This document shows positions 23,125 to 44,676 of a DNA stretch of 64,000 bases, in pieces; the stretch's first letter is position 1, and the number at the start of each line of letters is the position of its first letter. A program made the position numbers and the translations under genes. The notes beneath the pieces are model-generated. The model searched no databases. It saw nothing but the letters and a program-made list of their open reading frames with translations, and was not told the DNA's origin. This DNA is from an uncultured delta proteobacterium (GTDB lineage: Bacteria > Desulfobacterota > Desulfomonilia > UBA1062), in NCBI GenBank assembly GCA_963798485.1, contig CAWCTR010000009.1, forward strand, positions 48,721-112,720, in the 5' to 3' direction.

Positions 23125-23320
23125 GGTTTTCTTTATAGCAATCACATACGATAGGAAAGTTGATTCCTGCTATATCTTCCCAGTTATATGATGCTCAGAA
23201 ACTGATGATTTTGGAAATAAATCTATGCCAAGGGGCATGAATACTCAGAGTGCCGATTTTGTCACGTGATCTATGGTTTTGAAAATCCCAACTCAGTTCG
23301 ATGCCTCTGGCACATTATCT
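23125..23320 (+). repeat. Dispersed repeat family copy R1 (with duplicated tctatg...tggcac sub-block)
   Basis: gaaactgatgattttgg...tctatg...cagag; 23271-23313 is near-identical to 36632-36674. Confidence 0.7.
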
Positions 23321-26780: not shown

Positions 26781-26955
26781 ATAACTGCGATAAATCGGTG
26801 GTTTCAAACGGACAAGGAAGAGTAGATGTTTTGTTTCGAAATCTTCGGTATGGGCAAAGCGTGACGATTATCACCATTATCATTAGTTTCTCAGGACATA
26901 TGGAACCGATTGATTTTATCGCATAATCTACAGTCCAGATGATTAGCTCCTGATA
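26781..26955 (+). repeat. Dispersed repeat copy R4
   Basis: 26781-26869 matches 34977-35065 at 87 of 89 nt. Confidence 0.9.
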
Positions 26956-34447: not shown

Positions 34448-34898
34448 ATGTTTGAACCCAAGAAGATTCTCGTTCCGACAGATTTTTCAGGATATTCAGA
34501 TAATGCACTCAAACAAGCTGTGGACATTGCAGAAAAATTTAATGCAAAGATTGTTCTCTTGCATGTCATAGATGAGAACTTTCTACAGTGTGCAGCAGAT
34601 TATTGTATCAGCAATGATGCTGTTGAACAGTTAAAAAAAGAAAGTATGAAGACATCAGAAGATAAGATTAATAAGACAATTAATACTATTGAAGGGATCA
34701 ACAAAGGTTGACGTCTCCTCTGTAGTTAAGAAGGGGGTTCCTGCTGAGGTTATATTGGATGAGCAGATGAAAAATGGGATCGGTTTGATAGTTATTGCAT
34801 CTCATGGAAAGACTGGCATCTTGAAGCACCTCATTGGTAGCGTTACCGACAAGGTTGTCAGGGCTGCTAAATGCCCAGTTATGGTGATTCGGGCATAG
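34448..34898 (+). pseudogene. Universal stress protein, frameshifted near 34690
   Basis: KKILVPTDFS in frame 1; GVPAEVI...IASHG...GSVTDKVVRAAKCPV in a second frame. Confidence 0.85.
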
Positions 34899-34976
34899 CA
34901 TCGAATTTTTCTTAGTTCCTTCTGGTGTAGATATATTTATCTATGCAGAAGGAAACTATCCTTCAAAAAAGTGTCG

Positions 34977-35070
34977 ATAACTGCGATAAATCGGTGGTTC
35001 CAAACGGACAAGGAAGAGTAGATGTTTTGTTTCGAAATCTTCGGTATGGGCAAACCGTGACGATTGGCAC
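34977..35070 (+). repeat. Dispersed repeat copy R6, left half (continues at 36627-36690 after IS110)
   Basis: Near-identical to R4; rejoining the halves gives tggCACattatc as in R1 and R8. Confidence 0.88.
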
Positions 35071-36626
35071 CCATTAAAAGGCCCCTGTCAATAAAAACAT
35101 AGTTCACCATCGCACTTTTTTTTGCAGGTCTAACGTATAGCCAGCTGGGATCATGCCAACGATTCCCTTTCTGCGCCCTGTTTTTCATTATGCTCAGGTG
35201 ACAGATTACAATCTGCACCAGGCACCCATCGGGTTTTAGACTGCACAGCGAGAGGATGAACCTAGATGAGTAGCCCTCTCAACCCGTACGCCCCTAACAG
35301 CATCTGCTGTCCCAGAAAAATATCGGTTCCTTGCCATGTTCAATTGTAAGTGACACGACAATAGGCTCTTCCGGCCACACCTTAAAGACTCATGGCAAAG
35401 GCAGATCTGAACCATCGGAATTACCTCCACTGGATTCTTGTTTATAAGAGAGGGGTAAACGGCGGAGCAACCACGAAAATGGTTCTTAGCCACCAAACGT
35501 CTGGTCTCGCCGTTTTCCCCTGCTCAGCAAAAGAGCATCTCTTCCTTGAACTCAACGCCATCTCTGAGCATATAGTAGCAGGCCCTGGCAAGCTTGCTTG
35601 CTATGGTCTTGATTGCCACCATCCTGTGAGTTTTCGAAGCCTTCCTTTTGTAGTAGCCGGCAATCTTCGGGGACTGCCTTAGGGAGATAAACGCCGCTTC
35701 AACAAATGCCCAAGCCAGATACCGGTTCCCATTCTTTGCATTGCCTTTGCCCTTGCTCTTCCCGTTCGAAAACCTCCCGGTAGGAACACAACGGCAGTAA
35801 GAGGAGAAGTCTCCCACCCTTGCAAACCGCGAAATATCTCCCACTTCCAGCATGATCGTCATGGCAAGGATGTCACCGATCCCAGGAACCATGTGCAGTT
35901 TCTCAAAAGCATCCCTCGTCTTCACTTCTCTCTTTACCGTCTTCTCGATATTCCTGATGTTCTTCCCGAGAAAGGCTATGGTTTCAAGGCTCGTTGTACC
36001 AAGGAGAACTAAGTGCTCCTCCTTCAATATCCCTTTGATGTCTTCCGATTTAACCTTCCTCAGTGCATTCGCACTCATGTGCACACCGGTGTTCCTCTCG
36101 ATCATGGACTGCAGCGAGATGATATGGGCTGTTCTTTGCTTTACCAGGAATGATCTCTTCCTCAAGAGATCTCGAACCGGTCGCTCTTCCCTGGGATAGA
36201 TATATCCTTCAGGGAGAATGCCGAGAGACATCATCTGCGCAAGCCAGAAGGCATCATGTCGGTCATCCGCATACTTGAGCCCTTTGTACTGCTGTATCGC
36301 TGCAGGATTGGCAAGATGTACACAATCATACCCTGCCTCATTGAGCCCATCCACCAGCCAGTACCAGTTAAAGGTGCTTTCGACAGCTATCCCCCTGATC
36401 TCTTCACGGTAAGGGTTTAGGGTCCAAACGAGTTCTTCCAGGTTATTCTTTACACGCTTCTCGAAAACTCGCTTCATTGTTCCCTTCTCGATCAGCCCTA
36501 TGTACGTGTTCCCTGAATGGAGATCCAACCCGGCATACAGCTCACTCATGACACACCTCCTCCTGAGTTATTGTCTGTATTATAGCCGTGCGATCTTGGC
36601 GAAAGTGCCTTTTAGATGATTATCAC
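35071..36626 (-). mobile_element. IS110-family (IS1111 group) insertion sequence
   Basis: Subterminal IRs TAAAAGGC at 35075 and 36614, CAC core at both junctions, ~450-nt non-coding end downstream of the transposase. Confidence 0.85.
35524..36549 (-). CDS. IS110 family transposase
   Basis: GLDLH, VEST, K..D..DA (DEDD), VPGIG, SNG...GNRYL. Confidence 0.95.
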   Translation of the reverse strand: MSELYAGLDLHSGNTYIGLIEKGTMKRVFEKRVKNNLEELVWTLNPYREEIRGIAVESTFNWYWLVDGLNEAGYDCVHLANPAAIQQYKGLKYADDRHDAFWLAQMMSLGILPEGYIYPREERPVRDLLRKRSFLVKQRTAHIISLQSMIERNTGVHMSANALRKVKSEDIKGILKEEHLVLLGTTSLETIAFLGKNIRNIEKTVKREVKTRDAFEKLHMVPGIGDILAMTIMLEVGDISRFARVGDFSSYCRCVPTGRFSNGKSKGKGNAKNGNRYLAWAFVEAAFISLRQSPKIAGYYKRKASKTHRMVAIKTIASKLARACYYMLRDGVEFKEEMLFC

Positions 36627-37049
36627 ATTATCTATGGTTTTGGAAATCCCAACTCAGTTCGTTGCCTCTGGCACAGGATCAACAGATTATTCACATGGGG
36701 TGGAAAATTTAAACGCTCATTTTTTACAGGCAGTTTTTATCACGCTCAATCACCCCACCTGTCAAAGTGCGGTTAAATCGGCGCTTACAAATATCCCGAG
36801 GATAATTGCAAATAATATTAATACCAACCATTCCATAAGTGGAATATCCTTTTTGTGAGGCGTTCAAGTAACTCATCCTTGTTGTTTAATCCCACATGAT
36901 ATTTAAGGTCGGTTAAAAAGTGCCGGAACTTAAGCATTACGAAAGTGTGGTGGGAACAAAGCCAAGGTCTTTACAGTGCACGTTTGCAATCCAGGAACAC
37001 CATTATAAAGTCAGACTCGGGCAAAGATTTTCTGGACCATCCTCATGGG

Positions 37050-37170
37050 TGATTTCTTCGATTTCTTATCGGTTTTAGGATGTCTGAAAACCGAAGATCT
37101 TGGGCTGAAACATACAGAGCATATCATTTCATACTAAAGCATGACACATGACGTAACGAGATTTATACTT
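37050..37170 (+). repeat. Dispersed repeat copy R7
   Basis: gatttcttcgattt...tcggttttag...ctgaaaaccgaagatcttgggctgaaacatac. Confidence 0.8.
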
Positions 37171-37373
37171 ACATCAGACTCCCTTAAAAATGAATCTGTC
37201 ACCTTTTCTTTCTTTGGCAGATTGTATGATATACTCTATAGCATGTTTCTCCGGGCAGCTTAGGCAAATCTTTTAGGCTTGCCCATGGTTCTTCGTATTT
37301 CATGATAATCCTGCCAAACTCGACGAGCTTGGTCTGAAGGGCCAGGTTGTGAATCTATGAATTCAACTTACCA

Positions 37374-44284: not shown

Positions 44285-44430
44285 TTCATGATAATCATCG
44301 CTTTGCCCATATTGAATATCTCTTCGATAGATGATCGCTTTCTTGATCATCTAAAATGTACATATCTTGAGTTGAGATCTATCCTTTGCTGGTGGCATTC
44401 ACAAAGTAACGATCCTGGCACGCTCTTACC
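44285..44430 (+). repeat. Dispersed repeat copy R9
   Basis: ataatcatcgctttgccc...gatcctggcacg. Confidence 0.7.
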
Positions 44431-44460
44431 CCGGGACAACGCCACATGTGCCTCGTTTGA

Positions 44461-44676
44461 TAATTCCCTGTTCCTCGATTTTATTTCCCTGATATGTTAA
44501 AAAATTTCCCTGTTATGTTGAGTAGGGAATTTAGTTGTAACTCACTAGAATGAGAGATCATATCGATGCAATTTCTTTAATAAAGGTCCCAGAAACGATA
44601 AAATTCCCTGTAAATTCCCTGATAAACAGGGAATTTGGTGTAGAGAATGGTTCGCACTTGACTGCCTGCACCACCA
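44461..44676 (+). mobile_element. att-like end of an integrative element
   Basis: Multiple TTCCCTG/CAGGGAA boxes followed by a tRNA-3'-like ggttcg...gcaccacca. Confidence 0.55.

Follow-up and report, generated by a model that had tools for sequence, protein, structure and literature searches.

Insertion sequences (ISs) of the IS1111 type form a branch of the IS110 family. In the elements described by Siddiquee et al. (2024, PMC11187229), namely ISEc11, ISPa11, ISKpn4 and ISPst6, a DEDD transposase of 330-350 amino acids (aa) is encoded between subterminal inverted repeats and binds a seekRNA, which originates from the long non-coding region 3' of the transposase gene. In the related IS621 system, a bridge RNA with a target guide loop and a donor guide loop has been reported (Durrant et al., 2024, PMC11208160; Hiraizumi et al., 2024, PMC11208158; Hiraizumi et al., 2026, PMC13626964). 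ISPpu9 of Pseudomonas putida, as described in PMC12288879, is an IS110-family element whose insertion sites are repetitive extragenic sequences; a small-RNA gene lies downstream of its transposase gene, and orphan copies of that RNA exist. Insertion at one position of a repeated sequence is also indicated, by titles in the references of PMC11208160, for IS4321/IS5075 (terminal repeats of the Tn21 type), for the IS1111-attC group and for ISs targeting repetitive extragenic palindromic (REP) sequences. The present analysis concerns an element found in a stretch of 64,000 nucleotides (nt), hereafter the window, from an uncultured delta proteobacterium (assembly GCA_963798485.1, contig CAWCTR010000009.1, positions 48,721 to 112,720 of the forward strand). 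The element occupies 35071-36623 of the window (1553 bp, with CAC at either side) and is, with a probability of about 0.85, an active-looking IS of the IS1111 branch with a predicted guide RNA. The class is already known, and the element is an ordinary new example of it. What is new here is the covariation, seen across about 50 relatives, between the flanking DNA and three segments of the 3' non-coding region.

The initial annotation had proposed an IS110-family element with IS1111 layout, and both the protein and the arrangement of the locus agree with this. The open reading frame (ORF) at 36549..35524, the only long one in the element, matches the Pfam families DEDD_Tnp_IS110 (PF01548, E 9e-10) and Transposase_20 (PF02371, E 6.9e-16), both passing the cut-offs, and reaches 186.7 bits with the NCBIfam model NF033542, 'IS110 family RNA-guided transposase' (cut-off 140). 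The nearest structures are the solved ISCro4 and IS621 transposases, which are matched distantly and mainly in the C-terminal part (for IS621, E 3.6e-07 and the C-terminal part only). The nearest annotated genes of a plasmid collection show at most 49% aa identity, one of them, at 43%, being labelled ISGsu4-family, and the nearest named relatives belong to Desulfobacterales and 'delta proteobacterium' assemblies. Published descriptions of the IS1111 type give as its marks a transposase of 330-350 aa with the motif GL-P----S(T)G, subterminal inverted repeats of 7-17 bp (usually 11-13), short asymmetric terminal extensions, and a long 3' and a short 5' non-coding region. Here, the transposase comprises 341 aa, and 453 nt of non-coding sequence on the 3' side compare with 74 nt on the 5' side. 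Read along the gene, the element begins with ATAATCATCTAAAAGGC, 74 nt from the ATG, and ends with TTGACAGGGGCCTTTTAATGG, 453 nt past the stop codon. The arms TAAAAGGC/GCCTTTTA form a perfect inverted repeat of 8 bp, or of 11 bp allowing one indel, and they covary in relatives, in which ATCTAGAAGG, for example, is paired with CCTTCTAATGG. Beyond the arms, the left extension measures 5-8 nt and the right one 1-4 nt, varying with how the shared bases are counted. The reported catalytic residues of IS621 are D11, E60, D102, D105 and S241. In the present protein, the candidate residues D9, E57, D95/D96/D99 and S261 are invariant among six relatives. The two junctions given initially, gattggCAC^ccattaaaagg (35063-35081; ^ marks the junction here and below) and ccttttagatgattatCAC^attatct (36608-36633), are present as written, and the bounds are backed by the copies in the genome, three at 100% and two at 87% identity, which stop at these bases.

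The target is a dispersed repeat of about 111 nt, the consensus of which ends on the 3' side with ...ATCAGAGCGTGGCTCATGGCACGAAATCTAC. The element lies after TGGCAC near consensus position 103, always in the same orientation. The host genome contains nine matches to the element, of which three are identical (100%), two are 87% identical over the full length and four are right-end pieces of 555, 85, 47 and 64 nt. All five full copies and all three end remnants, together with four copies in three sister genomes (L011, L012, L022 and L023; 91-93% aa identity or broken), share one repeat position and one orientation, and the repeat-specific insertion claimed from the sequence alone is thereby confirmed. 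Each of the eight right-end junctions in the genome directly follows CAC (TGGCAC in seven, GATCAC in one), and each of the five left-end junctions continues with CAC plus (A/G)(T/A)(T/G)ATC on the window plus strand. The insertion position exceeds chance. When the flanks of homologous copies were aligned, as had been suggested, they proved to be members of the repeat family and not unrelated sequences. The locus thus presents the targeting expected of the IS1111 type, with a single target and a single orientation, two to three bases common to the junctions and no true target duplication.

Rounds 2-5 of an iterated nhmmer search (E <= 1e-3) returned 58, 66, 68 and 67 repeat copies, most of them empty, and the figure of 67 is a lower bound because the interrupted copy of the window, a diverged member, escaped the search. 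The similar flanks might instead be ascribed to the duplication of a larger segment, or to the repeat and the IS travelling as one composite unit. In favour of this, 95 nt of left flank in the window copy are 96% identical to 26781-26875. That segment, however, has no IS and continues as an uninterrupted repeat, the three identical IS copies are flanked by different repeat variants, and most of the 67 nhmmer copies are without an IS. This explanation is regarded as very improbable. Outside the conserved blocks of the repeat family, the flanks also vary among the copies. The exact uninterrupted motif TGGCACATTATC, reported initially for copies R1 and R8, is present at 23308 and 39418. The latter is the homologous position of an uninterrupted repeat, but the former (copy R1) belongs to a second TGGCAC module located 45 nt downstream, the homologous position in that copy reading TTGTCAC^GTGATC. 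As an exact 12-mer, TGGCACATTATC occurs twice in the window against about 0.008 expected (64 kb, both strands), while with up to two mismatches it is not enriched (9 against 6.5 expected, 22 of 100 shuffles reaching 9).

In the published elements, targets include repeats, such as REP sequences in the case of ISPa11, whereas the target described here is non-palindromic. A REP-like hairpin was not found when one copy was folded as DNA (z -1.42, 15 of 200 shuffles folding as well), and the ends of the repeat consensus have only ATTTC (5 nt) in common in inverted orientation, so that no terminal inverted repeats are claimed. In this respect the repeat, which lacks a significant fold, also differs from the transposon ends, attC sites and REP hairpins used by the other IS groups named above.

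The guide analysis covered 10 related loci from the same order together with a further 80 found in named public genomes (49-60% aa identity; 80 of 585 confirmed relatives). Of these 90 loci, 59 had ends that could be parsed, and 49 of the 59 also had a parsable hairpin. Beginning at the stop codon, about 80 nt can be folded into a hairpin (-36.7 kcal/mol, z -4.09, none of 200 shuffles folding as well), 10 of the 11 basal pairs of which show compensatory changes in 48 relatives. Two segments flank a conserved small hairpin (TGGC...AACCA) inside it. The T segment, 8-10 nt directly 5' of the small hairpin, is antisense to the right flank after the core, as in L014 (ACAGTCTC, 8/8), L066 (ACCCCATT, 8/8) and L064 (GCGCTT); in this copy ACGTTTGG matches the flank CCAATCGT at 7 of 8 positions. 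The B segment, 5-9 nt directly 3' of the small hairpin and located by a register histogram, copies the left flank and the core, for example AAGGCCTGAT in L016, AAAAGTGAT in L053, AGAAATGAT in L058 and TAACATG in L011. It is followed by two bases, AT in most relatives and GT here and in the sister class, and then by TGG. The third segment, block A, reads GATGG(G/A)TGxC in relatives and is found about 210 nt past the hairpin and about 160 nt before the right end. In PMC11187229, seekRNAs of 70-100 nt follow directly after the gene, with the top-strand complement 5' of the bottom-strand complement, and the same layout is predicted here, T lying 5' of B. The segment that follows about 210 nt later in the 453-nt region may come in addition to that scheme.

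The covariation of these segments with the flanks can be put in figures. The T guides share 5.41 of 8 identities with their own right flank and 3.30 with the flanks of other loci (n=46 dereplicated loci), and the corresponding values for the B guides and left flanks are 6.29 and 3.87 (n=28). For each guide, none of 10,000 permutations attained the observed sum, a figure that overstates independence because related loci share ancestry. Close pairs that differ concordantly (L053/L058 and L010/L011 in B; L064/L082 and L070/L077 in T) nevertheless support the guide reading despite this shared ancestry. In block A, the variable base x is that of the first flank position in 30 of 31 dereplicated loci (A 15, C 9, G 3, T 3), and the base before the TG core matches in 31 of 31. 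The two IS variants of the host genome carry different T guides, the own guide being the better one at four of five sites with one tie (hand count, 8-mers). The RNA guidance assumed in the initial annotation is therefore backed in sequence terms, by guide-like segments that match the flanks, and the predicted guide RNA is credible by its sequence, fold, order and covariation.

The transposase alone could also be thought to select the site by binding DNA at TGGCAC...ATC, the non-coding region then being a regulatory or structural RNA. The few bases conserved across all occupied sites (CGTG^CCA), the 2-4 mismatches in 8 positions between the B guide and the occupied left flanks and the presence of better guide matches elsewhere in the genome that lack an insertion would suit such a mechanism. 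A fixed protein specificity, however, does not predict three separate internal segments that change along with the flanks across relatives with quite different targets (ACCCC..., TCCTATT..., GCGCTT..., ACAGTCTC...), and this weakens the protein-only explanation; RNA guidance has moreover been demonstrated for the family in PMC11187229. Site selection by protein alone is consequently regarded as very improbable.

Several observations, besides the shared ancestry of the related loci, weigh against the interpretation of the element as an RNA-guided IS of the IS1111 branch. The C-terminal motif (V-P256-TGRF-S261-N262, with S261 and N262 invariant in six relatives) keeps the published spacing, but it reads P----SN in place of P----S(T)G, an N standing where the elements in PMC11187229 have the G or A of SG, TG or TA. 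An Rfam scan of 34500-37200 at E <= 1 returned no family for either the element or the repeat. Ten of the 59 loci with parsed ends were missed by the search pattern and are absent from the guide statistics. An RNA, a circle junction and an empty orthologous site all went unobserved, the contigs of four public runs giving no joints and the flank homology in sister genomes ending before the repeat. The B guide UUUUCGUG agrees with the five occupied left flanks at only 4-6 of 8 positions, compared with 7 of 8 for the repeat consensus GATTTCGTG (hand count). All ten consensus-type sites (CAC^GAAATC and one-base variants) inside nhmmer repeats are empty, and among the (A/G)T(T/G)ATC-type sites five are occupied and seven empty; for occupancy by site type, Fisher p = 0.04, with classes picked after the data had been seen. 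Scored plainly over 16 positions, the occupied sites attain 10-13, which places them in the upper tail but not at the top, since better empty sites exist (type A: 1,119 of 591,828 TG sites at 11 or above; type B: 209 at 12 or above).

Because of the B misfit, the empty consensus sites and the better-scoring empty sites, the two guides as read do not fully explain the choice of site. Possible causes are subfamily linkage in the repeat, a further determinant, such as that hinted at by a 13/13 antisense match in L022, and the loss of well-matched insertions by guided re-excision. The last of these may be extended into a speculative scheme of 'mismatch trapping', which is considered doubtful. The left-flank guide would be tuned to the repeat consensus, and guide-matched insertions would be removed by the same RNA-guided reaction that produced them, so that only mismatched ones become fixed; every retained copy would lie in an off-consensus repeat because matched insertions are re-excised efficiently. 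In this scheme the long 3' RNA would be a bridge of two parts, namely the target hairpin and, 210 nt downstream of it, a block for the donor end that contains a handshake dinucleotide. If this were true, genomic copies of IS1111-type elements would systematically under-report the preferred target.

In L022 the segment in question, GTTATTTATGGTT, lies in the non-coding region and is antisense to the left flank of the same locus. Its partial homologue in the window (35410-35424, minus strand), GTAATTCCGATGGTT, has only AACCAT in common with the flank, and nothing comparable was found at that place in other target classes. When the distal half of the non-coding region was searched for a left-flank guide by longest common substring, own pairs did not exceed cross pairs, and RNAalifold applied to a MAFFT alignment of the last ~210 nt of this region gave only four pairs and no useful structure. 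The variable stretch GAGCATAATGAAAA, which follows the hairpin beside block A, was considered as a copy of the left junction and was dropped as inconsistent among target classes.

The initial annotation placed the ends at a CAC core, and this part did not hold in its original form. A 3-nt core serving as the crossover site and duplicated on insertion would account for the CAC found on both sides of all five full copies in the host genome and for the end remnants L007 and L008, which terminate at an internal CAC. In relatives, however, only TG (CA on the plus strand) is common to both junctions, the third base differing between the left (TTG, CTG or ATG) and the right (GTG), although ATG together with ATG also occurs; their ends read (N)TG^ATAATC... 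on the left and ...TAATGG^(G/A)TG on the right. In L011, the left junction is ATG and the B guide TAACATG, which means that the third base is read as flank. PMC11187229, moreover, assigns one of the two copies in a 'duplication' of this kind to the IS. Because relatives share only TG and the L011 guide treats the third base as flank, the core is taken as TG, that is, probably 2 nt and not CAC, the third base here being a coincidental part of flank and end. The 3-nt core is accordingly judged unlikely, though less so than the other alternatives weighed here. In the sister-genome loci L014 and L015, the T and B guides fit the flanks at 8 of 8 positions, and the junction bases are unshared (TTG left, GCA right).

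A promoter formed at the circle junction is a published trait of the IS1111 family (PMC11187229), and one had been predicted for this element. Joining the ends by script reproduced TTGACA, a 17-nt spacer and GATAAT, and the arrangement recurs among the 37 relatives in which both ends were parsed. GATAAT is present in all 37, the -35 half is TTGACA in 25 and TTGACC/G/TTGATC in 12, and the spacer measures 17 nt in 28, 15 in 6, 18 in 2 and 13 in 1. In the integrated copy, the flank supplies TTTCCA-16-GATAAT, which is no better than shuffles.

In the mechanism that may be proposed from the observed anatomy, copies, flanks and covariation, the RNA itself, the circle, the activity of the promoter and the chemistry are predicted steps. 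As in the published mechanism of the family, the element would exit as a circle with abutting ends, and the junction would create a strong promoter, TTGACA-17-GATAAT, from which the transposase gene and the long non-coding region 3' of it would be transcribed. Past the stop codon, the initial ~80 nt would fold into the hairpin, the internal loop of which would hold a pair of short guides. T (ACGUUUGG), the one on the 5' side, is antisense to the flank adjoining the right end after insertion, and B (UUUUCGUG), on the 3' side, is in the same sense as the left-end flank plus core. Block A, ~210 nt further on, copies the right end of the element, the core and two target bases; it would probably hold the donor end and 'shake hands' with the target. 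The transposase-RNA complex would then recombine the circle with ...CG-TG^CCA... at the 3' edge of the ~111-nt repeat, in one orientation.

This scheme has several points in common with IS621 as described in the three bridge RNA papers. The donor and the target of IS621 share a 2-nt core, and a 2-nt core is likely here too. The 'handshake' dinucleotides of the IS621 guides match the non-cognate DNA, and by analogy two candidates in the present non-coding region resemble them: the two flank bases in block A, which is itself a candidate donor-end guide, and the AT after the B core, which equals the first two left-end bases in most relatives and is GU in this element. IS621 differs in that its RNA is encoded upstream of the gene and its core is CT. 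The orphan 3' region L006 is comparable with the orphan RNA copies of ISPpu9, an element that differs from this one in host, repeat and sequence.

The findings add an IS1111-type element that has well-defined limits and several copies, from an uncultured sulfate-reducer-like lineage, and leave the understanding of how such elements work unchanged. They also offer a natural data set for the guide code, with two variants in one genome that differ in the right-flank guide, some 50 relatives covering four classes of bases next to the core, and remnants that end at internal core copies. For annotation, they account for a repeat family that is repeatedly interrupted at one base and supply the exact ends of the element (Table 1).

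Table 1. Features of the element and of the interrupted repeat, in window coordinates.
Feature	Position	Strand	Remark
Insertion sequence body	35071..36623	-	1553 bp, both CAC copies excluded (1555-1556 bp with one)
Transposase gene	35524..36549	-	341 aa, stop included; DEDD/RuvC-like N-terminal domain and PF02371 C-terminal domain
Non-coding region 3' of the transposase gene	35071..35523	-	453 nt
seekRNA-like hairpin (predicted)	35448..35525	-	long basal stem, internal loop with two target guides, small apical hairpin 35480-35492
T guide ACGUUUGG (predicted)	35493..35500	-	antisense to the post-core flank, right-end side (here CCAATCGT, 7/8)
B guide UUUUCGUG + GU (predicted)	35470..35479	-	same sense as left flank + core
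Block A GAUGGGUGCC	35221..35230	-	copies right end (ATGG), core and first two flank bases (CC)
Shared CAC, right-end side	35068..35070	.	GTG in transposase direction; core proper probably CA
Shared CAC, left-end side	36624..36626	.	
Subterminal inverted repeat, right-end arm TAAAAGGC	35075..35082	.	plus-strand letters; arms covary in relatives
Subterminal inverted repeat, left-end arm GCCTTTTA	36607..36614	.	plus-strand letters; arms covary in relatives
TTGACA	35086..35091	-	predicted -35 half of the circle-junction promoter
GATAAT	36619..36624	-	predicted -10 half of the circle-junction promoter
Interrupted repeat, part before the insertion point	34977..35070	+	96% identical to the uninterrupted copy 26781-26875
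Interrupted repeat, part after the insertion point	36624..36685	+	second TGGCAC module at 36669-36674

Three incomplete copies of the host genome deserve a separate description. The right-end remnants L007 (G000 C10, ~122524; about 77 nt) and L008 (G000 C22, ~18516; about 45 nt) end at an internal CAC that is followed by a normal right flank, the junctions reading GTTATCTTCA and GTAATCTTCAG, and they look like deletions at internal core copies. L006 (G000 C14:50153-50703) is an orphan right part of 555 nt that contains the whole 3' non-coding region and the end of the gene; it is a copy of the guide region without a transposase, and its hairpin guides are decayed (B = TTTTTGTA).

Parts of the stretch are contained in 20 public runs, all as contigs, and the contigs of the four runs examined showed no joints, no circle and no empty site. 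An orthologous empty site was not found in 15 genomes of the genus, where the homology of the flank covers only the neighbouring universal stress protein (Usp) gene (query 75-634) and ends before the repeat. An RNA library (metatranscriptome run X20) contains a 365-nt contig that lies entirely inside 35127-35491 (96% identity, 14 differences) and stops short of the transposase gene, which may be taken as a weak hint of a transcript from the non-coding region.

Further observations concern the repeat family. In one subfamily, a second TGGCAC module follows the insertion position at a distance of 45 nt (window 36669-36680 and 23308-23319). The uninterrupted repeat at 26781-26890 has GATTATCAC where the occupied copy has GATTGGCAC, and on this strand GATTATCAC is also identical to the outermost 9 nt of the IS together with CAC; this may be a coincidence, or the footprint of an IS loss by recombination in AATC. 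Sigma-54 promoters have a defined consensus, with which the TGGCAC-N5 of the repeat was compared by eye, and this reading was rejected, as the repeat consensus has CTAC in place of the -12 GC. A module of about 26 nt, ATAATCATCG/A...GGGGCATGG, starts like the left end of the IS and finishes like its right end. It is located about 15-20 nt from empty target sites (G000 C7:627367, C15:1340, C18:40324(-), C24:71386(-) and C24:74887(-)), and a similar module adjoins the IS in L011.

A repeat copy at 44418-44660 of the window breaks off directly behind TGGCAC. What comes next is GCTCTTACCCCGGG... and a stretch containing at least six TTCCCTG/CAGGGAA words, possibly the terminus of a further element that uses this site. 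The initial annotation had spoken of a second independent element targeting the repeat family, but the first element implied by this was not found: the 10 ORFs scanned with Pfam, eight of which lie at 39.5-52.5 kb, include no other transposase, and no search for one was made in the remainder of the window. Upstream of the interrupted repeat, at 34448-34898, a Usp gene appears to be split into two overlapping ORFs (34448-34711 and 34689-34898), the first of which has a Pfam Usp match, and this arrangement suggests a frameshift.

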